Source: a bacterium
Lineage (GTDB): Bacteria; Patescibacteriota; Patescibacteriia; Patescibacteriales; GWC2-42-12
NCBI GenBank assembly: GCA_030650415.1
Contig: JAUSEG010000042.1
Location: forward strand, 15,052 to 79,051
DNA: 64,000 nucleotides
Reading direction: 5' to 3'
Below are positions 2,239-58,346 of this stretch, in pieces. The notes below the pieces were generated by a model. It saw only the letters and a program-made list of their open reading frames with translations. It had not been told where the DNA came from and ran no database searches. Every line of letters begins with the position of its first letter. The first letter of the stretch is position 1. The position numbers and the translations under genes are program-made.

Positions 2239-3063
2239 TTATCTAACTTCACAAATTTTCGCGTATTTCCGTCCAATCTCGGCCATTTCATTCATCTGCC
2301 GGGAATTATACGGCACCTTGCCCTTTAGCTTCTGATTTACCAACTCGCTTTGGCTTTTAAAATTTTGCAGATACCATTTTCCCGCCCCCTTAATTATTTT
2401 TCCCATCTCGTTGATATCGTTTTTATCCAAGAGGTCGGGCACCACCGTAGTTCTAAATTCATAGGGCAAGCCGCTAGCTCTTATTATCTTAACACTTTTT
2501 TTTACCCCGTCAAATAATTTTGCCACGGGCAAAATTCGTTCCGCTTGGCGGGACGATTTGACGGGGTGAATATAATTAAAATCCACGCTAACTTCCGTAA
2601 CCTCGCCATACTTATATTCGGGCGCCTTTAAATCCATGGCAATATAGTCTATTAATTTCTCTTTAACCAATTCGGCTAAAACTTCCGGATAACTGCCGTT
2701 AGTATCGAGCTTTATTAAATAACCCAGAGCCTTGATTTTTTTAATAAACTCGACCAAATCTTTTTGCAAACATGGCTCGCCGCCGGTTATAACCACGGCG
2801 TCCAGCTTGCCTGACCGATCTTTCAAAAAAACAAAAAAGTCATCCTGATTTATAATCGGATGAGCTTTTTGTTGCTCGATTTCTCTTCCGCTCTCGCGAA
2901 TAAGCTCTCGAACATATTTTAACTTGCTACCCTTAACGGGCCAGACAAGCATGGGGTTATAGCAAAACTGGCAGCGGAAATTACAACCTTGGGTAAAGAC
3001 TATGGCGCTAATTTTCCCCGGGTAATCCAACAAACTGAATTTTTGCAAGCCGCCGATAATCAT
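2239..3063 (-). CDS. nrdG: anaerobic ribonucleoside-triphosphate reductase activating protein (radical SAM)
   Basis: N-terminal CNFRCQFCYNP radical-SAM CxxxCxxC motif. It lies downstream of nrdD. Confidence 0.88.
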   Translation of the reverse strand: MIIGGLQKFSLLDYPGKISAIVFTQGCNFRCQFCYNPMLVWPVKGSKLKYVRELIRESGREIEQQKAHPIINQDDFFVFLKDRSGKLDAVVITGGEPCLQKDLVEFIKKIKALGYLIKLDTNGSYPEVLAELVKEKLIDYIAMDLKAPEYKYGEVTEVSVDFNYIHPVKSSRQAERILPVAKLFDGVKKSVKIIRASGLPYEFRTTVVPDLLDKNDINEMGKIIKGAGKWYLQNFKSQSELVNQKLKGKVPYNSRQMNEMAEIGRKYAKICEVR

Positions 3064-5358: not shown

Positions 5359-5371
5359 GGGGGTTGTATTG

Positions 5372-9628: not shown

Positions 9629-10075
9629 TTACACTTTATCAACTGCTACTTTATTAAATATTCTAAATTCAATATCCTCACCAACATTTCCGGCATCCCA
9701 AACGATAATTCCTTCATACCCATCTTTTACTAAAAGTTTATAAGCTTTTTTTGATGTTGCCCAATCTTTAATACTTCTAACGATGTCCATTCTTTTTAAC
9801 TCTTTGTTGTTTATTTTAATATATTTCTCGGCATTATCAGATAAATTTTCATCTATAAGACTTAATAAATTAAAATTATCTTTAATTTTATACACATTTG
9901 CGTTACCATTTTTCGCTGATTTTTTGTTATCATAAAAAGATATGCTTGGTTGAACTTTTTGTTTTACGCTATCGGAAAAATTCCAATTTATTGTTGGGTT
10001 TCTTGGCTCTAATTCCCCATCAGTTACATTTTTGTTCGTTCCGTGGTATAAAAAATATTTGGTTGGCTTAAACAT
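9629..10075 (-). CDS. hypothetical protein (AT-rich island gene)
   Basis: Track ORF of 148 aa, no family recognised. It contains an LYHGT motif (see findings). Confidence 0.5.
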   Translation of the reverse strand: MFKPTKYFLYHGTNKNVTDGELEPRNPTINWNFSDSVKQKVQPSISFYDNKKSAKNGNANVYKIKDNFNLLSLIDENLSDNAEKYIKINNKELKRMDIVRSIKDWATSKKAYKLLVKDGYEGIIVWDAGNVGEDIEFRIFNKVAVDKV

Positions 10076-10096
10076 AAAAATTTTATTTTAAAATAT

Positions 10097-10462
10097 CTAA
10101 GATGCTATTTCAAAAATCTTTTTTACTAAATCAGTCCTGGCATAAAAAGCTCGGCTCGTTGATCCGTGGCCGGAACCTTTCGTTCTGGCCTGTATCCATT
10201 TGCCATCTGCGCCAGTTAATGCTTCAAATCCCTGCATAATAAGTTTTTCTCTGATCAAATCATAATCTGCCTTTATTTCTTTAATAAGTTCGTCATCTTC
10301 TGTAAAATCTAAGCTGGCAACTTTCAATAGCTCTCCGCTCTCTGCATTTTTACCATGCCACGCCACCGCGCAAAAAACTATGGACTTTAATTTTGCCCAA
10401 CAATGACTTTCAAAAAATGAGTGTTTTTTAAATTCACCGGGGTTAATCATTGTTATGGCCAT
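10097..10462 (-). CDS. MutH/Sau3AI-like endonuclease, C-terminal-half fragment (possibly pseudogene)
   Basis: WIQARTKGSGHGSTSRAFYARTDLVKKIF resembles the MutH C-terminus (LQIRPKAAN...RGFYLKKNF). The N-terminal catalytic D..ExK region is not present. Confidence 0.35.
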   Translation of the reverse strand: MAITMINPGEFKKHSFFESHCWAKLKSIVFCAVAWHGKNAESGELLKVASLDFTEDDELIKEIKADYDLIREKLIMQGFEALTGADGKWIQARTKGSGHGSTSRAFYARTDLVKKIFEIAS

Positions 10463-10483
10463 TGTTTCTTTCGGCTTCGTATC

Positions 10484-10687
10484 TCAATAAATCCATAATT
10501 GAAACTGAGGATATGTTTCTGCGTCGTAAAATTCTAAATATTTGTCGTCTTCCCAAACGAGCTCGGTAAAATTTTCCAGGTCCTCGCTATATCCTCTGCA
10601 CATAACTAAAACCTTTCTGAGTGGGTTTATTCTTAAAATTATTTTTGCCAAAAATGGGCTCAAATTTATTGCTCCATCAAAAATCAT
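10484..10687 (-). CDS. hypothetical small protein
   Basis: Track ORF of 67 aa between the DpnI-like and MutH-like genes. No family recognised. Confidence 0.3.
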   Translation of the reverse strand: MIFDGAINLSPFLAKIILRINPLRKVLVMCRGYSEDLENFTELVWEDDKYLEFYDAETYPQFQLWIY

Positions 10688-10692
10688 AATTT

Positions 10693-11466
10693 TTAATTTA
10701 ATTTATATTTTCCTTTCGATATAAAATATAAATATCCTTTATCTCTCAAAAATTGCAGCTGCTGACGAATTTTGTCTTTAATATGCTTGTTTTCTGGGTG
10801 TAATTTACTGAGTTCACTTTCAAATCTATAAACATCATCAAGCACAAACTCGTTTTTATTTAATTTATCAACACACCGCATTATATCAAGTAGCCAGCCT
10901 TTTGCCGAAATTTCTTTTTCTTCCCTCAAAAATAAAGTTTTTTGCCAATTTTCTAAAACCCTATTTTTTGGCTCAACAATTTTATTTTTTACAAAAAATA
11001 TTTTTCCGGTTTGAGGAATCCCTGATGTTAGAATATTGCAGCCAACATAACCCGCTCTGCGAGCGTTTTCTGATAACGGTTTCCTTTTTTCGATAATATC
11101 TGGGGTAAAAAAGTGTTTCGGTATAACAAAAAAATTTAAAACCTCGAATTTTGTCTTATCATAATTAAGAAAGAAAAAATTTGGGTTATTGCTTTCTTGC
11201 AATCTTTCCACCATTGTCCGATATGCTCCGTCAAGAATTTTTGAGCCCATTGAATCTTTCTTGCTTTTTAATTCATATTCTTCCTTGCAATGAGAGCAGA
11301 AAAAATCAGCAACGGGTCTGCTATCTTCGTATTTATTTATTTTCAATTCGCCACAATTAGGACAAAATATTTGTTTATCAACCCAATCTTCAGTTAAAAA
11401 TCCTATCTTTTTAGGCTGACTTTTGTATTCTTTTGATAATATTTTTAAATCAAAAAATAAATTCAT
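10693..11466 (-). CDS. DpnI-like methyl-directed (GmATC) type IIM restriction endonuclease
   Basis: Collinear with S. pneumoniae DpnI as I remember it: LTEDWV, CPNCG, RPVADFFCSHCKEEYELKSKK, DGAYRTM, NPNFFFLNY, RKPLSENARRAGYVGCNI, YRFES.L, HIKDKIRQQLQFLRDKG. Confidence 0.85.
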   Translation of the reverse strand: MNLFFDLKILSKEYKSQPKKIGFLTEDWVDKQIFCPNCGELKINKYEDSRPVADFFCSHCKEEYELKSKKDSMGSKILDGAYRTMVERLQESNNPNFFFLNYDKTKFEVLNFFVIPKHFFTPDIIEKRKPLSENARRAGYVGCNILTSGIPQTGKIFFVKNKIVEPKNRVLENWQKTLFLREEKEISAKGWLLDIMRCVDKLNKNEFVLDDVYRFESELSKLHPENKHIKDKIRQQLQFLRDKGYLYFISKGKYKLN

Positions 11467-21123: not shown

Positions 21124-21213
21124 TATGAATAATGAATTATGAATAACGAATTATGAATAACGCCAACCGCCCCATTTCCTCCTCCGTAATTCATGATTCA
21201 TAATTCATGATTC
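21124..21213. repeat. inverted pair of ATGAAT/ATTCAT arrays in the ftsZ leader
   Basis: Arms at 21124-21160 (tatgaataatgaattatgaataacgaattatgaataacg) and 21186-21213 (gtaattcatgattcataattcatgattc). The loop carries GGAGGAGG plus an ATG. Confidence 0.75.
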
Positions 21214-21224
21214 TCTGCTTTTAT

Positions 21225-21251
21225 ATTATAACATTATTTTAAATATAGCAA
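21225..21251 (-). promoter_or_regulatory. candidate ftsZ promoter (TTGCTA-N15-TGtTATAAT)
   Basis: Minus-sense ttgctatatttaaaataatgttataat lies just upstream of the ATGAAT hairpin. The short spacer lowers confidence. Confidence 0.3.
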
Positions 21252-21340
21252 GTATTGTCTTCCATAGGTAACTTTCAATGCGTTCATGCGACTGTACAAA
21301 AGTTTTATACACCCTACATTCTTTTTTGCATTTGCATTTA

Positions 21341-21381
21341 CCATTATTCCTTATTCATAATTCATAATTCATTATTCATTT
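21341..21381. repeat. ATTCAT array element
   Basis: ccattattccttattcataattcataattcattattcattt, abutting the ftsA stop codon. Confidence 0.7.
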
Positions 21382-47572: not shown

Positions 47573-49858
47573 ATGAAACTAGTTATCGTCGAATCACCAA
47601 CCAAAGCCAAAACCATTACTAAATTCTTAGGTTCCGATTATACTGTCGAATCTTCTTTCGGGCATGTCCGCGATTTGCCGGTCAGTAAAATGGGTATTGA
47701 TATTGAACATGATTTTGAACCGAAGTATGTGGTGCCGAAAAAAGCCAAGGTTAACTTAAAAAAACTTCAAGAATTAGCTAAAAAATCAGACTTGATAATT
47801 CTCGCAACCGACGAAGACCGCGAAGGCGAAGCGATCGCCTGGCATCTGGCCGAAGCGCTTAAAGTTGATCCGAAAGATACTAACCGCATCGTCTTTCATG
47901 AAATTACCAAAACGGCAATCGCGGAAGCTATCGAGCATCCGAGAAAAATCGATATGAAACTGGTAAACGCCCAGCAGGCTAGAAGAATTCTTGATCGCTT
48001 GGTCGGCTACGAACTCTCCCCTTTCCTCTGGAAAAAAGTCGCTAAAGGCTTATCGGCCGGACGCGTGCAATCAGTGGCGGTTCGTTTAATTATTGAACGA
48101 GAACGAGAAATTAAAAAATTTAATATTGAAGAATATTGGTCGGTTTCGGCTAATCTGTCTCCCTACGAGAGATCTGGCGTAGCCAGACAGAACGGCGAAA
48201 AGCTCCCCTTCTTGGCTCGGCTAAATAAAGTTGACGGCAAAACCATTGATAAGCTGGAAATTAAAAATGAAAGTCAGGCGGCGGAAATTCTCACCGCGCT
48301 AAAAGGCGCGAAATATCTGGTGACTGATCTGGAAAAAAAGCAAACTAAGAAGCAACCGCCCAAACCATTTATCACTTCGAGCCTCCAGCAAACCGCCAAC
48401 CGCTGGCTCGGCTTTTCGGCTAAGCAGACTATGATGGTAGCGCAGCAGCTTTACGAAATGGGCTTTATAACTTACATGAGAACCGACTCTTTGAACCTGG
48501 CTGACAAATTTTTAAGCGAGGCGGCCGAATATTTAAAAACTAATCTGGGCGAGAAATATAGCCTAGCTACGCCGCGCCGCTTTAAAACTAAGGATAAAGG
48601 CGCGCAAGAAGCGCATGAAGCCATTCGCCCATCCGAAGCGTCGCGCGCGCCGGAAGCGGCAGCCGCCGACCTGAATCCTAACCAGAATAAACTCTATAAA
48701 TTGATTTGGCAGAGAGCCGTAGCTTCGCAGATGACCGAGGCCATCGTGGATGCTACGGTAGTTGATATCGACACTATTACCCCCTTGATAAAGGGGGCTA
48801 GGGGGATTAATCGCCAATTTCAATTCCGCGCCAACGGCCAAGTTATAAAATTCGACGGCTACCTTAAAATTTATCCGGAAGCCAGCCAGGAAATAATCTT
48901 GCCGGAAATTAAAGTTAAAGAAGAATTGGAACTCCTGGAATTAAAACCCGAACAACATTTTACCAAACCGCCGGCCAGATACTCGGACGCCGGTTTAGTT
49001 AAAGAACTGGAAAAACACGGCATTGGCCGACCTTCTACTTACGCGCCGACTATTAACACAATTATTGACAGAAATTATGTCCAGCGCGACGAAAATAAAC
49101 GCTTAGGCCCGACCGATATCGCCTTCGTAGTAATCGATTTATTGGTTGAGCACTTTCCCAAAATTGTAGATTACGAATTTACCGCTAAAATGGAAAATGA
49201 TTTGGACACAATTGCCGAAGGCGGAGCTAAGTGGCAGCCGATCATTAAAGAATTCTACGACCCTTTCCATGCCAATTTGGAAAATAAATATGAGTCCATT
49301 AATAAAAATGATATCGTGCCGGAAGAAAAAACCACCGAGATTTGCGATAAGTGCGGCGCGCCTATGATCATAAAAACCGGCCGTTATGGAAAATTTTTGG
49401 CTTGCAGCGCCTTTCCCGAATGTAAAAACATAAAATCCCTGCCCGGAACCGATAAAAACAAAAACGGCCTAGCTGATAGTAAAGAAATTGATGAATTAAA
49501 AGAAAAGTATAAAACCGAAGTTTGCGGTAAATGCGGCGCGCCCATGGCGGTTAAAGTCGGAAAATTCGGCCCCTTCCTTGCCTGCTCCGCTTACCCGAAA
49601 TGCAAAAATATTAAGAGCATAAACGGCCCGAGCCAACAAACCGGCATAACTTGCCCGGTCTGCAAAAAAGGCGAAATCGTGCAAAAACGCAGCCGCCGCG
49701 GCATCTTCTACGCTTGCAACCAATATCCTGACTGCAAAACCGCTTTCTGGGGAAAACCAACCGGCGAAAAATGCCCTGACTGCGATAGTTTACTAATTGA
49801 AGACGCTAAAAAGGGCGAAGTTAAATGCTCAAATAAAGAATGCGGGTATATTAAATAG
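47573..49858 (+). CDS. topA: DNA topoisomerase I
   Basis: TOPRIM (LVIVESPTKAKTI; ATDEDREGEAIAW), active-site region (ITYMRTDS) and several C-terminal CxxC Zn ribbons. Confidence 0.93.
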   Translation: MKLVIVESPTKAKTITKFLGSDYTVESSFGHVRDLPVSKMGIDIEHDFEPKYVVPKKAKVNLKKLQELAKKSDLIILATDEDREGEAIAWHLAEALKVDPKDTNRIVFHEITKTAIAEAIEHPRKIDMKLVNAQQARRILDRLVGYELSPFLWKKVAKGLSAGRVQSVAVRLIIEREREIKKFNIEEYWSVSANLSPYERSGVARQNGEKLPFLARLNKVDGKTIDKLEIKNESQAAEILTALKGAKYLVTDLEKKQTKKQPPKPFITSSLQQTANRWLGFSAKQTMMVAQQLYEMGFITYMRTDSLNLADKFLSEAAEYLKTNLGEKYSLATPRRFKTKDKGAQEAHEAIRPSEASRAPEAAAADLNPNQNKLYKLIWQRAVASQMTEAIVDATVVDIDTITPLIKGARGINRQFQFRANGQVIKFDGYLKIYPEASQEIILPEIKVKEELELLELKPEQHFTKPPARYSDAGLVKELEKHGIGRPSTYAPTINTIIDRNYVQRDENKRLGPTDIAFVVIDLLVEHFPKIVDYEFTAKMENDLDTIAEGGAKWQPIIKEFYDPFHANLENKYESINKNDIVPEEKTTEICDKCGAPMIIKTGRYGKFLACSAFPECKNIKSLPGTDKNKNGLADSKEIDELKEKYKTEVCGKCGAPMAVKVGKFGPFLACSAYPKCKNIKSINGPSQQTGITCPVCKKGEIVQKRSRRGIFYACNQYPDCKTAFWGKPTGEKCPDCDSLLIEDAKKGEVKCSNKECGYIK
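48780..48808 (+). repeat. hairpin+G-run repeat inserted in frame in topA
   Basis: CCCCCTTGATAAAGGGGGCTAGGGGGATT is translated as PLIKGARGI. Confidence 0.75.
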
Positions 49859-50269: not shown

Positions 50270-50623
50270 TTAATTTTTATTTGTATCGTCGGTTTTTTCT
50301 TCCGCTTTCTCAATCACCTCAACCAATTCAATTTTTATTCCGCCGGTTCTTTTAGCCAGCCGATTATATATTCCGGCCATTATATAACCGATAATCCAGC
50401 CGATTAGCGCGGTTAATAGCGCGGTTAAAACTCCTAAGAGCAGGCCGGCGCCAATGTTGAATGAAGTTACTAAAATAACCGAGCCCTGAAAATCTTTTCG
50501 CGCGATAATATTAATTATGGTTAATACGGCTACAACTAAGGCCATAAAAAAACCCACCAAGCCGTAAATTAAGGCCATCATTTTCGCCAGTGATTTCTTG
50601 TTAATACTTTTTATTTCTTTCAT
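50270..50623 (-). CDS. membrane protein, hypothetical
   Basis: Start taken at MKEIKSINKKSLAKMMALIYG. Three hydrophobic spans. Confidence 0.5.
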   Translation of the reverse strand: MKEIKSINKKSLAKMMALIYGLVGFFMALVVAVLTIINIIARKDFQGSVILVTSFNIGAGLLLGVLTALLTALIGWIIGYIMAGIYNRLAKRTGGIKIELVEVIEKAEEKTDDTNKN

Positions 50624-50695
50624 AAAATAAAAAACGAATAATCTTCTATTTTTTCTATAATCACGCGGATTAACGACGTAAATATTATACCACAC

Positions 50696-51583
50696 CTACT
50701 TAAAAACGCTAAGCAGCTTTAACCAATCATCAACCGATAATTCCTGGGCTCTAATCTTACCGTTAAACCCGGCCTGAATAATTTTATTTTCCGCATCAGC
50801 TTGATCTATCTTAAAACCGGCGGCTAGATTATTTTTTAGCATCTTTCTTCTGGCGCTAAAGCCGAATTTCACCAATTGAAAAAAGTTTTTTTCTCTCTCT
50901 ATCCCCCCTGACAAGGGGGGAAGAAGGGGGGTTTTATGGGGTATAATTTTTATTATAGCACTATCGACCTTCGGTTCCGGCCAAAAAAATTCCTTGGGCA
51001 CGAGTTTAATAATCTCCGCTTGAGCGTAAAATTTAACCGAAACGGAAAGTAAACTCATTTTCCCGGGCTTGCCCCGTGAAATGCGCTTCGCGCCCCGACT
51101 TATTGCCGGGATTTCACGGGGTGAAGCGGTAATTCTTTCCGCCACTTCCTTTTGCAGCATGAGCGCCATTAAATCGGGCTTTATTTCCGCCTCAAGAAAC
51201 TTTCTTAAAAATATGGAAGTAATGTTATATGGCAGATTCGCCACAACTTTAAATTTTGAAATTGGAAATTTTAATATGTCGCCATTTACTACTTCGACAT
51301 TCTCAATCTTCCGCGCGGCCAGTCCGATCTCTAAAACCTCGGCCAATTTATCGTCTAACTCCACGGCGATTACTTTTTTAACTCGAGCTGCTAGCTTAAA
51401 CGTCAAAAAACCTAAACCCGGTCCAACTTCTAAAACTATGTCATCAATTTTTAAATCGGCCGCGGCCACCATCTCGTCGTAAGCTTCTTCTCTAATTAAA
51501 AAATTCTGCCCTTTTGAGCGGGCAGGAATTATCTGATGCAGTTTGCACAAATTTTTAGTTTGTTCGAGTAAATCCATATACAT
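50696..51583 (-). CDS. rsmA: 16S rRNA (adenine1518/1519-N6)-dimethyltransferase
   Basis: KGQNFL, VLEVGPGLGFLT, ANLPYNI and FSARRK motifs. Contains two repeat-derived in-frame insertions. Confidence 0.9.
   Translation of the reverse strand: MYMDLLEQTKNLCKLHQIIPARSKGQNFLIREEAYDEMVAAADLKIDDIVLEVGPGLGFLTFKLAARVKKVIAVELDDKLAEVLEIGLAARKIENVEVVNGDILKFPISKFKVVANLPYNITSIFLRKFLEAEIKPDLMALMLQKEVAERITASPREIPAISRGAKRISRGKPGKMSLLSVSVKFYAQAEIIKLVPKEFFWPEPKVDSAIIKIIPHKTPLLPPLSGGIEREKNFFQLVKFGFSARRKMLKNNLAAGFKIDQADAENKIIQAGFNGKIRAQELSVDDWLKLLSVFK
50903..50931 (+). repeat. hairpin+G-run variant inside rsmA
   Basis: CCCCCCTGACAAGGGGGGAAGAAGGGGGG, read on the minus strand as PLLPPLSGG. Confidence 0.6.
51072..51121. 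repeat. 50-bp CCCCGTGAAAT...ATTTCACGGGG element inserted in frame in rsmA
   Basis: Perfect 11-bp inverted arms. It is translated as part of PREIPAISRGAKRISRGK, an 18-aa block that interrupts the usual KsgA ...A.PG.K.Y..LSV... region. Confidence 0.75.
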
Positions 51584-51589
51584 TTACTA

Positions 51590-51621
51590 CCCCCTTTAAC
51601 AAAGGGGGACAAGGGGGATTT
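51590..51621 (+). repeat. hairpin+G-run repeat
   Basis: CCCCCTTTAACAAAGGGGGACAAGGGGGATTT. Confidence 0.8.
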
Positions 51622-51627
51622 ATATTT

Positions 51628-52119
51628 TTATTTGCCCCTAATTCCTGCTATAATATATTTATCAAACCAATTAATAATCTTATCCTTAAAACCGGCTTTA
51701 GCCATACAGCCATAACAACCGCCGGCTGACGCTAAAACTCCGCTGTCCATTTGTGTCATGGTCATACCTCCGGCGATTAGTTGTCCGCCAGAAGTTAAAC
51801 CGGCTTGGGCGATAGCTGTAATTAAAAAAAGCGCGTTACTACCCATGCCGCCGGCAGGTGAGCCGCTAACGTCAGAATACAAAGCGCATCTACCGACATC
51901 TAGTAAATTGCACAAAGTTCCTCCGGTACAGATAGGCGGCACTCCAGTTGTTACGCAGGGTATTACAATTACGTTAGTTAGTCCAATTTGATAGGGATAG
52001 CCGCCGGCCGATTGCGCGGCCTTAATTAAAGGAGCTTCGGGCCAGAAATAGTAAAATCCGCTGACTGAGATAATAGCAACAAAAATTAAAAATATAATGA
52101 CTTTTCTCATAGTAGTCAC
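51628..52119 (-). CDS. small secreted Cys/Gly-rich protein, hypothetical
   Basis: Signal/TM (VIIFLIFVAIISVSGFYYF). No family recognised. Confidence 0.5.
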   Translation of the reverse strand: MTTMRKVIIFLIFVAIISVSGFYYFWPEAPLIKAAQSAGGYPYQIGLTNVIVIPCVTTGVPPICTGGTLCNLLDVGRCALYSDVSGSPAGGMGSNALFLITAIAQAGLTSGGQLIAGGMTMTQMDSGVLASAGGCYGCMAKAGFKDKIINWFDKYIIAGIRGK

Positions 52120-52147
52120 ATTATACCATTTTTTAATAAAATTTTCA

Positions 52148-52228
52148 CCCCGTTAGAAATTAATCCATATTAACGGACTGTAAATCGCTTATATATCTAT
52201 AATTTTATGAATAATATTTCTAACGGGG
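52148..52228. repeat. 81-bp element with perfect 13-bp TIRs CCCCGTTAGAAAT/ATTTCTAACGGGG enclosing a start codon
   Basis: Left TIR at 52148-52160, right TIR at 52216-52228, and the ATG at 52207 inside. The outer flanks TTTTCA/TAAAAA extend the inverted repeat. Confidence 0.75.
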
Positions 52229-53196
52229 TAAAAAAATTTCTCTTAATCGGCTTAATTTTTTACCTAATATTGCCTAAGATTGCTGAAGGCGGTGGAACGC
52301 TTACCGGCAGAATATTATTGCAAGTTGAAGACAAAGGCCAAGCCTGGTATGTCAATCCGGCCGATGAAAAAAGATACAGTCTGGGCAGACCGGATGACGC
52401 TTATAATTTAATGCGAAAATTAAGTATTGGTATCAGCAACGAAGATTTAAAAAAAATACCAGTCGGTTTATCGTCTAGTAATTATCCGGACAGCGATGAA
52501 GATGGCCTTAATGATAATCTAGAAGACGCTCTAGGCACGGACAAAAATAAAACCGACACAGACGCGGACGGCTATGATGATAAAACCGAATTAACTAACG
52601 GTTATAATCCTCTTGGCTCGGGCAAACAACCGATTGATGAAAAATTCACTCGCAGTAATTCCGGCAAAATATTTTTGCAAGTGCAAAAAAATGGTGAAGC
52701 TTGGTACGTCGAACCGGTAACGCAAAAACGATATTCCCTGGGACGGCCTGGCGATGCTTTTCAGATTATGAGAACTTTCGGACTGGGTATAACCAACGCC
52801 AACTTAGAAAAAATTCCAGTCGGCCAATTGCCGATTGATCTGGATCCTACCGACCTTGACCCAATTGATCCAGACCCGTTTGATCCCGACCCGATAGATA
52901 CACTTTCCGATGATGCGTTGCAGTCAGCGGCTTCGGCTATAAGAGCAGCTGACGGTCCTAGCGCCATTTCATTTTTTACGCCGAACATGCAAAAATCAAT
53001 TGAATATTCTGTCGAGCATATGCCAAAAGAAAGCTTATTAATACTCGCCAATATCCTTTCCGGCAGTACTTTAGAATCTTCCGCAGAAACCACCAATACT
53101 TATTCCAACGAAGTTTACTTCCAAGGCGAAAAACACACGGTATATTTTTATGTGGAAAAACAGCCGGACGAAACTTGGCTCTTAACAAATCTATAA
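52207..53196 (+). CDS. secreted protein with duplicated domain, TSP3-like repeats and a (D-P-x) tract
   Basis: A signal peptide, then two copies of G.I.LQV...G.AWYV.P...KRYSLGRP.DA..., DSDEDGLNDNLED...DTDADGYDD...GYNPLGSGK, and PIDLDPTDLDPIDPDPFDPDPID. Confidence 0.65.
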   Translation: MNNISNGVKKFLLIGLIFYLILPKIAEGGGTLTGRILLQVEDKGQAWYVNPADEKRYSLGRPDDAYNLMRKLSIGISNEDLKKIPVGLSSSNYPDSDEDGLNDNLEDALGTDKNKTDTDADGYDDKTELTNGYNPLGSGKQPIDEKFTRSNSGKIFLQVQKNGEAWYVEPVTQKRYSLGRPGDAFQIMRTFGLGITNANLEKIPVGQLPIDLDPTDLDPIDPDPFDPDPIDTLSDDALQSAASAIRAADGPSAISFFTPNMQKSIEYSVEHMPKESLLILANILSGSTLESSAETTNTYSNEVYFQGEKHTVYFYVEKQPDETWLLTNL

Positions 53197-53240
53197 AAAA
53201 ACCTTAATTTTAACGCGAACAAAAAAATAGAAAATAAAAA

Positions 53241-53397
53241 GACTCTTAGCTATATTGCAAGCATAGAAAGATTTAGGATTAGATTTAGCCTGAAATTTAT
53301 TTACAAACATTTCTTTCTCCTTTTCTCATAGAAATTTTGTTAAAAATTTCAGGCTAAATCCCTAAATTTTTCGTGGCAAACAATATAGCTAAGAGCC
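53241..53397. repeat. ~157-bp long imperfect inverted repeat between convergent genes
   Basis: CTCTTAGCTATATTG...ATTTAGCCTGAAATTT // AAATTTCAGGCTAAAT...CAATATAGCTAAGAG. Confidence 0.65.
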
Positions 53398-53439
53398 TTT
53401 TTATTAAATTTGTGACGAGCGATATAGTTAAGGTCTTTT

Positions 53440-56232
53440 TTATATAACTATATTTACTAATTTCCCTTTAACAAAAATAACTTTAATAATTTCCTTATAT
53501 TCAAGCCATTTCTTTATTTTTTCGCTTTCTAAAGCGATTTTTTTAGCTTCTTCTTCGCTAATCTCAGCCAAAACTTTAAGAGTGTCGCGCACCTTGCCGT
53601 TTATCTGAATCACTAGATTTATGGTTTCATCCTTAACTAATTCCGGATTATATTTCGGCCACGGCTGTTTAAAAATACTTTCTTTATTGCCCAGTTCCGA
53701 CCACAGTTCCTCGCATAAATGCGGCGCGAACGGCGCTAAAATCTTTAAAAAATTCTCCAACGCTCCGCGCGGCATAGCATCAAGCTTGCCGGCGAAATTT
53801 ACAAAAATCATCATGGCGCTAATCGCCGTGTTGTAATGAAAATCTTCTATATCTTGCGTGACTTTTTTTATTGTTTTGTGAAGCAGCTTTGGCAAGCCCG
53901 ACTCTTTAATCTTGCAGTCGCCGCCCTGGCAATCGTATAATTTTTTATCTTTTAATTTATAAACATTTTCCAAAAATCTTCTGGCGCCGATCACGCCGTT
54001 GGTGCTCCAGGCGCAAGGCTGGTTAAACGGCCCCATGAACATTTCATAAACGCGCAGCGAATCCGCGCCGAATTTTTCCACTATTTCGTCCGGGTTAATA
54101 ACATTACCCCAACGTTTTGACATCTTGCGCCCGTCCTCGGCCATGATTAAACCAACCTGCTGCAGCCGCGTGAACGGCTCATCGTAATTTACCGCGCCGA
54201 TATCATATAAGAACTTATGCCAGAAGCGCGCGTAAATCAGATGTCGCGTAGCATGCTCGGCGCCGCCGACATAAAAATCCACCGGCGACCAATATTTTTC
54301 TTTGACTTTATCGACCAGCGCTTTCTTATTTTTGGGATCAATATATCTTAAATAATACCAGCTTGACCCTGCCCATTGCGGCATAGTATTGGTTTCGCGC
54401 AAAGCCTTACCGCCGCACTTCGGGCACTTGGTATTCACCCACTCTTTAATATTAGCCAGTGGCGACTCGCCCGTGCCGGTCGGCTGGTAATTTTTCACTT
54501 CGGGTAATTTCAAAGGTAATTCTTTCTCCGGCACCGCCACATTACCGCATTTCTCGCAATGGATAATCGGGATCGGCTCGCCCCAGTAGCGCTGACGGGA
54601 AAACACCCAGTCACGGAGTTTATAGTGCACAGTTAATTTGCCAAACTCTTTAGCCATTTTTGATCTTGCCTGATTGGATTTCATTCCGGTAAAATCTCCT
54701 GAGTTTATCACAACCCCTTCGCCAATATAACAAACGAACTCTTCATAAAATGAATTATGCCACAACATTTCCCAAATACTATTATACTTTCTGACTAACG
54801 GTTCAGTCCGTTTTAGCCTTTCAAATAATTTTAAATCATTAAATTGAAAATTTTCAAACACTTTATCTTTGAAAACCAAAATATTTCTAGCCCCGATGAT
54901 ATCTACCCAACCATCTCCTTTTAAATAGCTCTGGACCATCTTTATAAATTTATTAATCTGGTATTCTTTTAGAACTATTCGAATATGTTCTCTCCCGTTT
55001 CTACTTAGTCCAATCGTAAATTCAATTTTACTTTTTACAAGCTCATCCTTTAGGCCTTTTTCTACGGTTTCAGTAACTATGATTGATTTCAAAATATCTT
55101 CTGGCCTGACAACTTGTTTGATTGGTAAATTATATTTAATAGCAAATTCAAAGTCCCTCTGGTCATGCGCCGGCACGGCCATAATCGCGCCTGTGCCATA
55201 CCCAGTTAGTACATAATCGGCTACGAAGATTGGAATTTCTTCATTGTTAACCGGATTAATCGCCATTATGCCTTCTAACTTAATACCGGTTTTTTCTTTG
55301 TTTAAATCAGTTCGCTCCAGGTCGCTCTTATTTTTAGCCGCGTTTATGTATCCTTCCACTTCGGCCCAGTTCTTAATCTCGCTTTTTAAATCTTGGATTA
55401 ATTTATGCTCCGGCGAGATTACCATGAAGGTCGCGCCGAAAAGAGTGTCCGGCCGCGTAGTAAAAACTTCTATAAATTTTTGGCAATTTGATTTTTTAGA
55501 TTTATTTGAAAATTGAAAATTGAAAATTGAAAATTTAACTATTGCCCCTTCGCTCCGCCCGATCCAATTTCTCTGCATTTCCTTAATCGACTCTTCCCAG
55601 TCCGGCAATTTTTCCAAATCGTTAAGCAGGCGATCGGCGTAATCGGTAATTTTTAAAACCCACTGGCGCATCGGCTTCCTTTCCACCGCCGTGCCGCAGC
55701 GCTCGCACAAGCCACCCTCCAAATCTTCGTTAGATAAAACCGTTTTACATGACGGGCACCAATTCACGGGCTCGTTCGATTCATAAGCCAGCCCGCGTTC
55801 AAACATTTTTATGAAAGTCCATTGCGTCCATTTATAATATTCCGGATCGGTGGTATTTATTTCCCGCTCCCAATCATAGGTGAAGCCCAATTTCCCCAGC
55901 TGATTTTTAAAAGTGGCAATATTTTTTTCCGTGGCGGCTCGCGGATGAATTTTATTGGCGATGGCGTAATTTTCCGCCGGCAGGCCGAACGCGTCCCAGC
56001 CCATAGGGTGAAGCACATTATAGCCTTGCATCATTTTGGCGCGGGCAAAAATGTCCGTGGCGATATAGCCCTTAGGATGGCCGACATGAAGGCCGGAGCC
56101 GGAAGGGTAAGGAAACATATCCAAAATATAATATTTCGGTTTGGCTTTATCTTCGGAAGTTCTGTATAACTTGGTTTTTTTCCAGCTCTTGATCCACTTC
56201 TCTTCTATTTTTTTGTGATCATACTTTTCCAT
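53440..56232 (-). CDS. leuS: leucine--tRNA ligase
   Basis: HVGHPKGY (HIGH), FTTRPDTLFGAT, KMSKRWGN (KMSKS). 930 aa with extra inserted segments. Confidence 0.93.
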   Translation of the reverse strand: MEKYDHKKIEEKWIKSWKKTKLYRTSEDKAKPKYYILDMFPYPSGSGLHVGHPKGYIATDIFARAKMMQGYNVLHPMGWDAFGLPAENYAIANKIHPRAATEKNIATFKNQLGKLGFTYDWEREINTTDPEYYKWTQWTFIKMFERGLAYESNEPVNWCPSCKTVLSNEDLEGGLCERCGTAVERKPMRQWVLKITDYADRLLNDLEKLPDWEESIKEMQRNWIGRSEGAIVKFSIFNFQFSNKSKKSNCQKFIEVFTTRPDTLFGATFMVISPEHKLIQDLKSEIKNWAEVEGYINAAKNKSDLERTDLNKEKTGIKLEGIMAINPVNNEEIPIFVADYVLTGYGTGAIMAVPAHDQRDFEFAIKYNLPIKQVVRPEDILKSIIVTETVEKGLKDELVKSKIEFTIGLSRNGREHIRIVLKEYQINKFIKMVQSYLKGDGWVDIIGARNILVFKDKVFENFQFNDLKLFERLKRTEPLVRKYNSIWEMLWHNSFYEEFVCYIGEGVVINSGDFTGMKSNQARSKMAKEFGKLTVHYKLRDWVFSRQRYWGEPIPIIHCEKCGNVAVPEKELPLKLPEVKNYQPTGTGESPLANIKEWVNTKCPKCGGKALRETNTMPQWAGSSWYYLRYIDPKNKKALVDKVKEKYWSPVDFYVGGAEHATRHLIYARFWHKFLYDIGAVNYDEPFTRLQQVGLIMAEDGRKMSKRWGNVINPDEIVEKFGADSLRVYEMFMGPFNQPCAWSTNGVIGARRFLENVYKLKDKKLYDCQGGDCKIKESGLPKLLHKTIKKVTQDIEDFHYNTAISAMMIFVNFAGKLDAMPRGALENFLKILAPFAPHLCEELWSELGNKESIFKQPWPKYNPELVKDETINLVIQINGKVRDTLKVLAEISEEEAKKIALESEKIKKWLEYKEIIKVIFVKGKLVNIVI
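55508..55535. repeat. GAAAATT x4 tandem heptamer inside leuS
   Basis: gaaaattgaaaattgaaaattgaaaatt, translated on the minus strand as FSIFNFQFS. Confidence 0.8.
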
Positions 56233-56275
56233 AATAGACTAATTTTAACCTAAAATTGGCGAAAAGGCAAGAAAA

Positions 56276-56719
56276 TTATTTTTTATAAATCAGCCAATTC
56301 TTTTTGTCTTTTAACCGAACTAGTACATATTCTCCCTTTAATTTTTCGCCAACTAAATTAAATTTCATGCTGCCTTTCTCCAGGTCGCCGTCCAGTGTCT
56401 GCCATTTGCCTTTATCATAAATTTCCACTGTGCCGGCGCCATACTCGCCTTCGGGAATCGTACCGGAAAAATTTATATATTCCACCGGATGATCTTCTAC
56501 CGCTATGGCTAACCGCTTAATCCCCGCTTCTTCCGGCACGCCTTTGGGTACGGCCCAAGATTTTAGAACCCCTTCATGCTCTAACCGAAAATCATAATGC
56601 AGGTGGCTGGCCTGATGTTTTTGCACGACGAAACGCGATAAACTTTTTTTCTTAACCGTGCCTTTAGGTTCGGAGGTTTTATTAAATTTTCTTTTGGCTT
56701 GATATTTTTCTAAGGCCAT
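56276..56719 (-). CDS. stand-alone DNA ligase D 3'-phosphoesterase (LigD-PE)-like protein
   Basis: YQAKRKFNKTSEPKG...FVVQKHQASHLHYDFRLE..GVLKSWAVPKG...VEDHP.EY..F.G.IP.GEYGAG.V. The ATG at 56719 is preferred over the GTG at 56731. Confidence 0.8.
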   Translation of the reverse strand: MALEKYQAKRKFNKTSEPKGTVKKKSLSRFVVQKHQASHLHYDFRLEHEGVLKSWAVPKGVPEEAGIKRLAIAVEDHPVEYINFSGTIPEGEYGAGTVEIYDKGKWQTLDGDLEKGSMKFNLVGEKLKGEYVLVRLKDKKNWLIYKK

Positions 56720-56724
56720 ATAAT

Positions 56725-57021
56725 TTTTCACCCCGTGAAATAAGATTTGAGCCTTTTTCTTAAAAACATTTTACCGTAATGAGTTTTTAAATGCTTTTCG
56801 CGTCGAGTAGCATCTTGTTGATTTAAACAACTTTCGTAATAAATCAACTTCAATGGTCTTCGATTCATTGTCGACTCTACTAACCCCATAGCATGTTGCT
56901 CAAATCTTAATTTTAAATTTTTAGTATATCCAACATATTGTTTTTTATCCTTTAAACTTAACAAAACATAAGTATGATACATATTAAAACAAAATTTAAA
57001 ATTATTTCACGGGGTAAAAAC
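56725..57021. mobile_element. GIY-YIG gene bracketed by inverted repeats TTATTTCACGGGGTrAAAA
   Basis: A perfect 13-bp IR (56731-56743 CCCCGTGAAATAA; 57003-57015 TTATTTCACGGGG) extends to about 19 bp with one mismatch. The same termini occur in cargo-less elements at 51072-51121 and 52148-52228. Confidence 0.55.
56728..56982 (-). CDS. GIY-YIG nuclease family protein (84 aa)
   Basis: YHTYVLLSLKDKKQYVGYTKNLKLRFEQH...RREKHLK. The last codons (YFTG*) are encoded by the left inverted repeat. Confidence 0.85.
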   Translation of the reverse strand: MYHTYVLLSLKDKKQYVGYTKNLKLRFEQHAMGLVESTMNRRPLKLIYYESCLNQQDATRREKHLKTHYGKMFLRKRLKSYFTG

Positions 57022-57214
57022 GGGCTTAACCCTAGAGCCTATCTTAAAAATAATCTCTGGATCGTTTTCGGTCTTTTTTGGCTACAAAATTATAAAATTT
57101 TGTCGAAATAATTTATTATTCCTCCTTAATTTTCTAATTTTTCGCTCAAAAAATCCTCGAAAACGACTTAGAGCTATTTTTAAGATAGGCTCCTGAAGAA
57201 TTAAGCCCGCTTTT
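57017..57214. repeat. ~200-bp long imperfect inverted repeat
   Basis: Arms of about 50 bp (AAAACGGGCTTAA..GAGCCTATCTTAAAAATA...CGTTTTCG // CGAAAACG...TATTTTTAAGATAGGCTC..TTAAGCCCGCTTTT). Confidence 0.65.
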
Positions 57215-57232
57215 AATGAAATTAACAATTTT

Positions 57233-57880
57233 TTAACTCTTGCTGACCGCGCCGGCGCCATTAGCATTGTTGCCGTTATCTTTATTTTGCATTTCGTCCT
57301 TAATCAGCGGGGCGATAACGTCCTTATGCATGCTATATTCGCAGAAAACCGCTAAGGCGATTACCGTGGTCCAAAGGCCGTCCTTATTGCCTTCCGCCGA
57401 CTGGGTGACGTTTGAGGTCTTAAAAATATTGCCGCTGGCTTTATAGATCTGTTCTCTTTCTTCCCAAGCCTTGGCCGAATCGAACTCAATGCCTAAGGTT
57501 GTAGCTAACATGGTAGCAGCCAAATCTTCGGCATATTCGCCGGTTTTTTTCGCCACCTCGCCGAAAGCGTGATGCTCGGATAAATAACCGTAGTTATTTT
57601 CATCGCTTGGCCTGGCCACGCCGATAGAGGCGGAAATTAATCGGTTTGGTTCATTAGTTTCGCTTCTGGCTAAAACGCAAAAAACTATTTGTCCCGGATG
57701 AAGCATTCTCTCGCCTTTTTCTTTAGAAGTAACATGGCAATTAGGCGGCATGATGCTGGAAACGGTTACTAGGTTATGCTTTTCAATGCCGGCATCCCTA
57801 AGCGCCAGCTCAAAAGACGCTAGTTTGTCCTTATGAACACCGACTCCTTTAGTAAAAAACATTTTCTTTGGCGTGAACAT
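57233..57880 (-). CDS. pdaD: pyruvoyl-dependent arginine decarboxylase
   Basis: [39 protein letters not shown], including the conserved self-cleavage Ser-Ser region. Confidence 0.85.
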
Positions 57881-57893
57881 ACTTTAAAATGCT

Positions 57894-57983
57894 AGAATTA
57901 TGAATAAAGAATTATAAATTATGAGCCGTAAATTCTATTTGGCCTTTTTCCATAATTCATGATTCATTATTCATAATTCATTT
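57894..57983. repeat. inverted pair of ATGAAT/ATTCAT arrays in the pdaD leader
   Basis: Arms at 57894-57925 and 57950-57983, the same layout as the ftsZ leader. Confidence 0.7.
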
Positions 57984-58250: not shown

Positions 58251-58346
58251 CCCCGTTAAATTAAAATGAATTTAAACTTAATATCTATTACTAATGTAAT
58301 ACTCGTTCACCTCTTCGTCAAGGTATTTAGCTTCTATTTAACGGGG
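58251..58346. repeat. 96-bp element with perfect 11-bp TIRs CCCCGTTAAAT/ATTTAACGGGG
   Basis: Ends 16 nt upstream of the dsbA-like start codon and is followed by TAAA like the other copies. Confidence 0.7.

Follow-up and report, generated by a model that had tools for sequence, protein, structure and literature searches.

In the genome of a member of the Patescibacteriota, the gene for the rRNA methyltransferase RsmA (KsgA) carries two short hairpin-forming repeats within its reading frame. We analysed these repeats, here called unit 1 and unit 2, in a stretch of 64,000 nucleotides of contig JAUSEG010000042.1 (the window), which also holds a small cassette encoding a GIY-YIG nuclease. The principal features are the following (aa, amino acids; nt, nucleotides; ORF, open reading frame).

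50696 to 51583, minus strand: rsmA/ksgA, 295 aa, intact, host of both insertions
51071 to 51124: unit 1 insertion, 54 nt or 18 codons encoding SPREIPAISRGAKRISRG (residues 154-171), without target-site duplication
51072 to 51082, plus strand: left arm of unit 1, CCCCGTGAAAT, 11 nt, identical to the cassette arm at 56731-56741
51111 to 51121, plus strand: right arm of unit 1, ATTTCACGGGG, 11 nt, which with the following TGA equals the 3' end of the GIY-YIG family, ...TTCACGGGGTGA (F-T-G-stop)
51083 to 51093 and 51094 to 51110, plus strand: inner mini-hairpins of unit 1, GCGC-TTC-GCGC and CCCGAC-TTATT-GCCGGG
50903 to 50931, plus strand: unit 2, CCCCCCTGACAAGGGGGGAAGAAGGGGGG, a C6-TGACAA-G6-AAGAA-G6 hairpin in the interdomain linker (hot spot HS3)
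56729 to 57016, minus strand: GIY-YIG cassette, 288 bp, with an 84-aa ORF (56728 to 56982) between the inverted repeats TTTTCACCCCGTGAAATAA and TTATTTCACGGGGTAAAAA (inverted repeat I24)

The host gene is a bona fide rsmA. Its product matches Pfam RrnaAD (E 2e-49, 168.5 bits against a cut-off of 24) and NCBIfam TIGR00755 (ksgA; 215.9 bits, cut-off 171), is annotated as an intact protein by NCBI, and has an identical 295-aa counterpart on record from an independent Logan assembly; the closest named relatives are Candidatus Falkowbacteria / Parcubacteria. It possesses the Rossmann methyltransferase domain and helical C-terminal domain that define KsgA/RsmA, and the positions invariant in the RsmA alignment (G54-G58, N116, P118, and Y119) preserve both the S-adenosylmethionine motif and the NLPY motif. 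An AlphaFold (AF2) model built on 44 orthologues shows the KsgA fold with a mean pLDDT (predicted local distance difference test) of 86, and superposes on Bacillus subtilis KsgA and on 30S-bound KsgA (6ift/7v2p) with template-modelling (TM) scores of 0.77-0.82. The ratio of non-synonymous to synonymous substitution rates (dN/dS) is 0.07-0.13 relative to relatives and 0.13 between two insert-bearing lineages, with dS of 1.1-1.9 and synonymous sites saturated against the most distant filled relative, L003. Hence rsmA is under strong purifying selection, and RsmA presumably retains its activity, dimethylation of A1518/A1519, with the insert present. The preliminary description of this DNA overstated one point in calling the gene essential, since KsgA is universally conserved yet described as non-essential where tested in bacteria (PMC3534330).

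We delimited unit 1 with a codon alignment of rsmA from the window and three other assemblies (the orthologues of L001, protein cluster P0002; L002, P0003; and L003/L004, P0040). Exactly 54 nt lie between GCT (Ala153) and AAG (Lys172). The empty allele of L002 reads ...ATT ACG GCT / AAA CCC GGT..., and the filled alleles of the window, L001, and L003/L004 have an extra TCA CCCCGTGAAAT ... ATTTCACGGGG C. The borders of the GCT/insert/AAG junction cannot be shifted, and neither a repeat nor a footprint is present. The insert is a multiple of three and stop-free in all three filled lineages, and RsmA reads ...ERITA-SPREIPAISRGAKRISRG-KPGKMSLL... across it; both the stop-free reading of a 50-bp unit and the 18 extra residues in the ERITA region, proposed at first from the ORF alone, are thereby confirmed. 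Translation would yield junction peptides such as ERITASPREIPAISR, ITASPREIPAISR, and ISRGKPGK. The pattern CCCCGTGAAAT-N28-ATTTCACGGGG has a single match in the window, at 51072-51121 (50 bp), and none in 100 shuffles. Because the insert is carried by independent assemblies from NCBI, Logan, ENA, and JGI, it is not an assembly artefact.

Residues at the unit 1 position occur in only three of the 120 closest RsmA clusters (the window's own, P0002, and P0040), the remaining 117 being empty. Identity over rsmA is 78.3% between L001 and L002 and 75–76% between either and the window, and over the rsmA flanks 82–83% and 72–74%, respectively; gene and flanks alike give the relationship ((L001,L002),window), yet the insert is present in L001 and the window and missing from L002. 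By protein identity to the window, P0040 takes 118th place among the 120 clusters, and its own nearest neighbours are empty. Since filled and empty alleles do not follow relatedness, the pattern requires that the same nucleotide position was hit at least twice, that the insert was lost seamlessly, or that the filled allele spread laterally. When metagenomes were scanned for the rsmA/arm junction, the L001 lineage alone was re-found.

We found that the nucleotide sequence of unit 1 is far better preserved than the gene around it. Outside the insert, rsmA identity in the three pairs of filled alleles is 75%, 64%, and 63%, whereas the insert is 94%, 89%, and 87% identical in the same pairs. The 22 arm nucleotides show zero changes versus 5–6.6 synonymous changes expected (P about 4e-4 to 7e-7), and the changes in the insert between lineages are mostly non-synonymous (A/T, I/E, G/S, and K/E). 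Six changes separate the window insert from that of L003: three are located in loops of the hairpins, two leave a base pair intact or strengthen it, and one breaks a terminal pair. Each version of the insert is predicted to fold as an 11-bp stem closing two mini-hairpins (-33 to -35 kcal/mol, z -4.6 to -7.5); in the window version (-35 kcal/mol, z -4.6) arms and mini-hairpins form a predicted three-way junction. Frozen arms and pair-preserving changes beside a varying peptide indicate that the conserved entity is the nucleic-acid structure and that the peptide is therefore a passenger. Protein-level conservation of the SPREI and ISRG residues was considered as the cause of arm identity and rejected, given the missing synonymous changes and the non-synonymous changes in the loop codons. 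Either the palindrome is under selection, or it was acquired recently, or it has been homogenised, and its frozen state at one codon position in non-sister lineages is the unexplained core of these observations.

In the structural model, residues 159-173 lie between helix 145-151 and helix 178-186 with pLDDT below 50, and the inserted peptide is probably a disordered basic loop of 18 residues, with a net charge of +4 in both the window and L001 and of +1 in L003. In the alignment to B. subtilis KsgA the insert falls within AADPSSKEYG. This segment is loop12, described as a specificity loop, in which K169 touches h45 as well as h27 (at A901) when KsgA is bound to the 30S subunit (bioRxiv 10.1101/2021.09.15.460497). 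The surface loop anticipated in the preliminary description is thus present in the model, but it lies on the RNA-binding face. Among 150 distant RsmA cluster representatives, loop12 has its baseline length in 133 and carries other, unrelated inserts in 12, and is therefore a permissive hot spot for insertions.

The arms of unit 1 recur 5.6 kb away at the ends of the GIY-YIG cassette, where the same 11 nt are extended to 19 nt. The 84-aa ORF contains Pfam GIY-YIG (PF01541; E 1.2e-15, residues 1-71) as its sole domain. The syntenic point in L001 reads CCGTTTT^AAAAAG, with neither cassette nor duplication, and the cassette is a discrete 288-bp insertion relative to L001. The TGA stop of the 84-aa gene (56728-56730) spans its edge: the cassette ends ...GGGGTG and the flanking DNA supplies the A. 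Homologues of the protein number in the thousands; the nearest 120 clusters are 73–100% identical to it, and 104 of these 120 end in YFTG-stop or YLTG-stop, a C-terminus encoded by the arm as ...TTCACGGGGTGA or ...TTAACGGGGTAA (variants present in the window). Cassettes from the metagenome-assembled genome of an Elusimicrobia (L120) and from another metagenome (L121, two copies) have both arms, the upstream one about 28 nt before the ATG and the downstream one where the gene stops; in one copy the two arms read CCCTGTG/CACAGGG, having changed in a compensatory way. Different inverted repeats accompany a neighbouring GIY-YIG gene that belongs to another subfamily. We presume that the cassette is the source or partner of the unit 1 arms. 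A link of both repeats to GIY-YIG elements had been suggested initially; it holds for unit 1, whose arms are those of the cassette, encode the C-terminus of its homologues, and bracket the L120 and L121 cassettes; for unit 2 none was found.

When one genome per species was scanned for two arms 20–50 nt apart, arm-family palindromes were detected in at least 115 stretches in many phyla, often with many copies in single genomes. Among the matches listed, the hosts are Bacteroidota, Verrucomicrobiota, Cloacimonadota, Binatia, Marinimicrobia, several proteobacterial groups, several Patescibacteria, and one Pacearchaeota bin, and the four bases outside the arms are often complementary too (TTTA/TAAA, TTCA/TGAA, CTCG/CGAG). 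Among 50 distinct short interiors, 18 adopt a fold of exactly two hairpins in tandem whose sequences differ, typically with G-C-closed three-base loops such as GCGAAGC. In-frame copies occur in genes for a cytidylyltransferase (L016), SecA (L108), an amidohydrolase (L089), and a PD-(D/E)XK protein (L067), where the Pfam match spans the element or is split by it. No match to the palindrome was found in 2.9 million viral contigs, which gives no sign of a phage vector. The window itself has five related short palindromes. At the start codons of LytR-type, unknown secreted, and DsbA-type genes, across them or directly upstream, lie arm-family palindromes (41542-41617, 52142-52234, and 58251-58346), from one of which ORF 52207 would take its start codon.

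Unit 2 belongs to a different family. On the coding (minus) strand it reads ACC CCC CTT CTT CCC CCC TTG TCA GGG GGG, or TPLLPPLSGG, and so contributes PLLPPLSGG without a stop, as first read; it is not the simple palindrome it was taken for but a hairpin plus a third G-run. The pattern C5-N6-9-G5-N3-5-G5 identifies four distinct elements in the window (five pattern matches, two of them overlapping at 50903/50904) and none in shuffles. Besides unit 2, these are:

51590 to 51617, plus strand: intergenic, 7 nt upstream of the rsmA start codon
48780 to 48805, plus strand: in frame in topA (TPLIKGARGI), shared with the topA of L001
61293 to 61318, plus strand: in frame in a pyruvate:ferredoxin oxidoreductase (POR) alpha-type gene, read SPLIKGVRGI

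A fifth, degenerate copy lies near 5367. All copies are on the plus strand regardless of host gene orientation, a bias that five copies do not make significant. The HS3 linker that holds unit 2 varies from 11 to 55 aa among 120 orthologues (mode 13). Two more distant orthologues (L123 and L124) have a homologous, partly decayed unit 2 at the same site and in the same frame, and the insertion is therefore old. The rsmA of L001 contains a 27/29-identical element at another hot spot, before NLPY and in another frame, where it reads PPLFPPYQGG; L124 shares it. By a rough peptide pattern, unit 2-type peptides are present in about 50 of the 120 RsmA orthologues. Unit 2 is thus repeat-derived as well.

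Other inserts lie in the same genes or loops. A window-specific 30-nt insert at 48158-48187 of topA (47573-49858), absent from L001, consists of two mini-hairpins (SPYERSGVAR). The POR alpha-type gene (60335-61621) has an in-frame inverted pair of TGTCAT-type ends at about 61081-61171, of the NTS-like kind described below. In L003, rsmA (10001-10957) has an in-frame 27-codon TGTCAT-type insert (ACT GTC ATT CTG ... AGG ATG ACA) at the hot spot before NLPY.

Taken together, these results lead us to conclude, with a probability of about 0.72, that both units are repeat-derived hairpin DNA that entered rsmA and was kept. On this account they survived there because they keep the frame, introduce no stop codon, and lie in permissive loops. 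In-frame colonisation resembling that by Rickettsia palindromic elements (RPEs), in another lineage and by other repeats, was the central proposal of the preliminary description, and it is supported by the empty and filled sites and family copies of unit 1 and, more weakly, by the copies of unit 2.

To place unit 1 among known systems, we compared it with several types of repeat. In-frame fusion by intragenic MITEs (miniature transposable elements with inverted repeats) is described as not unusual, and RPEs are its extreme case, short palindromic repeats lying in frame in unrelated conserved genes, translated and compatible with the fold (PMC10969869). Unit 1 is likewise a stop-free, in-frame palindrome at a fold-compatible position of a conserved gene, and in both cases there are several families per genome in a reduced-genome, host-dependent lineage. 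RPEs, however, are about 100–150 bp long, Rickettsia-specific, and without a known partner gene, whereas unit 1 is 54 bp long, shares its arms with a GIY-YIG cassette, belongs to a family found across phyla, and is conserved at the DNA or RNA level rather than as a peptide. Like classical MITEs (Correia, ERIC, BOX, Nezha), which are short, non-coding, and multi-copy with terminal inverted repeats and occasional in-frame fusion to host ORFs, unit 1 is multi-copy with perfect 11-bp arms; classical MITEs, in contrast, have target-site duplications and derive from insertion sequences (IS) with DDE transposases, and here neither unit 1 nor the cassette junction has a duplication and the partner with the same ends is not a transposase.

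The closest functional parallel is offered by Ssn, single-domain GIY-YIG proteins of about 94 aa that cut single-stranded DNA (ssDNA) beside hairpin repeats (NTS/SRM) flanking their own genes; an IS-like architecture was noted and mobility hypothesised without demonstration, NTS are rarely intragenic (2% in N. meningitidis), and NTS/Ssn modulates transformation in Neisseria (Chenal et al. 2025, PMC11893778). The 84-aa protein is similarly a single-domain GIY-YIG protein, its gene being bracketed, in L120 and L121 too, by hairpin repeats in inverted orientation, further copies of which are scattered through the genome. It differs in forming a distinct clade with an arm-encoded C-terminus, and no in-frame colonisation or empty-site evidence is reported for NTS, whereas here cassette and mini-palindrome both have empty sites. 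REP/REPIN-RAYT systems (REP, repetitive extragenic palindromes) and MITEs of IS200/IS605 share with our elements inverted hairpin repeats, a small gene flanked by the same repeats, seamless junctions without target-site duplication, and presumed ssDNA intermediates; their partner is an HUH Y1 transposase, while the gene flanked here is a PF01541 GIY-YIG nuclease, and REPs, by definition, lie outside genes. Homing endonucleases of the GIY-YIG type (I-TevI, Seg) have the same catalytic domain, sites in conserved motifs of conserved genes, and elements more conserved than the host gene. Those enzymes add DNA-binding domains and reside in introns or are free-standing, whereas the 84-aa protein is a catalytic domain alone and what the mature coding sequence retains is a 54-nt palindrome without a nuclease. 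Unit 1 therefore resembles these systems in its working and is a member of none as currently defined. In the literature we found no prior description of these arms, of GIY-YIG genes with MITEs or inverted repeats of this kind, or of in-frame repeat colonisation in Patescibacteria.

Unit 1 is, in our view, a 54-nt non-autonomous palindrome with the ends of the cassette (inverted repeat, 84-aa GIY-YIG gene, inverted repeat), inserted into loop12 between Ala153 and Lys172 without target-site duplication or footprint. By analogy with Ssn/NTS and IS200/IS605-REP, its arms may be ssDNA recognition hairpins of the GIY-YIG nuclease, and spread, loss, or homogenisation of the palindrome would depend on host repair and on an action of the nuclease on ssDNA. 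A second family, of C-run/G-run hairpins, is represented by unit 2 and repeatedly occupies two other RsmA loops of this clade.

Several observations weigh against colonisation by mobile repeats. The SRM motif HGTCWY...RNCYNB is matched by neither unit 1, unit 2, nor the arms of the 84-aa cassette, and a tblastn search of the stretches, at most 8 kb long, in which the short palindromes of other phyla lie found no GIY-YIG gene, so that these copies are dispersed. GIY-YIG nucleases are hydrolytic, and none is known to transfer strands. No transposition event or within-population polymorphism was observed. The inner-hairpin subfamily of unit 1 is found at the rsmA site only, in 0.94 Mb of sequence searched; this favours a single origin of the filled alleles in the three lineages, on which the frozen state of the arms is more difficult to account for, and if the three alleles do share one old event, the patchiness needs seamless losses or lateral exchange. 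Loop12 contacts rRNA, and unit 1 may therefore not be neutral. For unit 2, the net gain over L002 is five codons with borders that are not cleanly delimited, and no partner gene was found. Finally, 64 kb of this genome are covered, and all data are metagenome assemblies.

A first rival is that the palindrome is kept by host-level selection as a GIY-YIG ssDNA nuclease site acting in recombination or transformation as NTS does, as an mRNA structure tuning rsmA, or as a basic peptide that extends loop12 to grip rRNA. The label "selfish" is an interpretation of the repeats, and a frozen palindrome could equally be under host-level selection: the arms are unchanged while synonymous sites of rsmA are saturated, the inner stems are kept through loop-only or pair-preserving changes, the subfamily is seen at the rsmA site alone, the insert sits in the rRNA-contacting loop12 with its charge of +4 in two lineages, and NTS/Ssn affects transformation, with DprA encoded nearby. 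On the other hand, a selected function agrees poorly with an insert filled in three of 120 clusters and missing from a sister lineage, with a predicted disordered peptide that varies freely and drops to +1 in L003, and with unrelated inserts at loop12 in other lineages, and we regard this rival as unlikely.

Site-specific homing is a weaker candidate again. Here the empty rsmA site would be cleaved by a nuclease and the palindrome copied in during repair, so that the filled allele spreads between lineages or the element re-inserts at the same position. This would account for the same nucleotide position and subfamily in the distant L003 (64% nucleotide identity), for an insert far more alike than its flanks, and for footprint-free junctions; the empty site AAACCCGGTAAGAT also resembles the arm at 8/11 positions, a post hoc match to which we give no weight. 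Identity in the immediate flanks, however, is not raised beyond protein conservation, known homing enzymes have a DNA-binding domain that is missing from the 84-aa nuclease, other repeat families at the same loop fit a permissive-site filter instead, and the junction scan recovered one lineage.

An ordinary, lineage-specific ancestral loop of RsmA, palindromic by chance and without mobile DNA, is very improbable. It draws some support, for unit 2 only, from the homologous PPLSGG/PRLSGG at the same site in more distant orthologues. For unit 1 it is contradicted by the 117 clusters and sister lineage L002 that are without the insert and by arms identical to a repeat elsewhere in the genome and in many phyla, and unit 2 recurs in topA, the POR gene, intergenic DNA, and at another site and frame of the L001 rsmA. 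Hardly credible at all is a pseudogene, an assembly artefact, or removal of the 54 nt from RNA as a mini-intron, which the capacity of palindromes to cause misassembly and the strong structure within the ORF might suggest, since independent assemblies agree, the frame, the invariant KsgA positions, and the low dN/dS are intact, and the insert is a stop-free multiple of three in three lineages with no Rfam match (scan of 50600-57300, E≤1). A ribozyme or mini-intron reading was rejected on the same grounds, no family match and an in-frame, stop-free insert.

Mobile-repeat colonisation of rsmA, if correct, extends RPE-type protein colonisation to bacteria of the candidate phyla radiation, where it appears common (three loops of RsmA; topA, POR, and NrdG-type genes), and ties one repeat family to a small GIY-YIG cassette, with empty sites showing that cassette and mini-palindrome are discrete insertions. 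A palindrome frozen amid saturated synonymous sites offers a clean natural test case of selection on DNA or RNA structure in coding sequence, and such inserts inflate and fragment alignments of core marker proteins in these lineages. A further idea is tentative, and we would not expect it to hold: minimal GIY-YIG (Ssn-like) cassettes may be true footprint-free ssDNA-hairpin mobile elements whose nuclease-less mini-palindromes cross phyla and enter genes in frame, where nucleic-acid selection or homogenisation by the nuclease would hold them. If so, the Ssn-type pair of nuclease and hairpin, whose mobility was a hypothesis at its description, would form a class of mobile element not recognised before, one with a part in shaping the proteins of candidate-phyla-radiation bacteria, and would be expected to leave the same palindrome at one rsmA codon position across lineages with saturated synonymous sites.

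Further features of the window belong to related repeats:

33184 to 33477: second GIY-YIG gene, 97 aa, inside a perfect 31-nt inverted repeat (33137-33540), beside SRM-type repeats
2204, 23230, 39037, 39079, 40603, 40655, 44869, 59131, 60244, and 62784: SRM/NTS-like repeats
2505 to 2566: related 62-bp palindrome with arms CCCCGTCAAAT/ATTTGACGGGG, lying within the frame of an NrdG-type radical SAM gene (2239 to 3063, minus strand), read as HPVKSSRQAERILPVAKLFDGV

These ten TGTCAT-type matches to the SRM motif compare with 0.15 expected, and the canonical NTS-like sequence TGTCATTCCCGCGMAGGCGGGAATCCAG is nearly identical to the Neisseria NTS. Together with the second GIY-YIG gene in its inverted repeat, they place the known Ssn/NTS system in a Patescibacteria genome. 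This NTS-flanked GIY-YIG protein and the 84-aa protein share 36% identity, and the latter has weak matches to UPF0213 structures. Intergenic inverted arrays of AATTATGAATAA-like units at 21125-21380 and 57895-57979 may be another repeat family.

Near the leucyl-tRNA synthetase (LeuRS) gene, a 45-nt inverted repeat (53233-53277 / 53361-53405), 82% complementary, lies between ORF 52207 to 53196 and LeuRS; it is kept in L001 and L002, with Rfam matches that are sub-threshold only. The LeuRS of the window (53440-56232) has 930 aa, and those of relatives have differing inserted domains, with alpha/beta hydrolase matches in L001 (5147-8167) and NUDIX in L003 (6470-9463).

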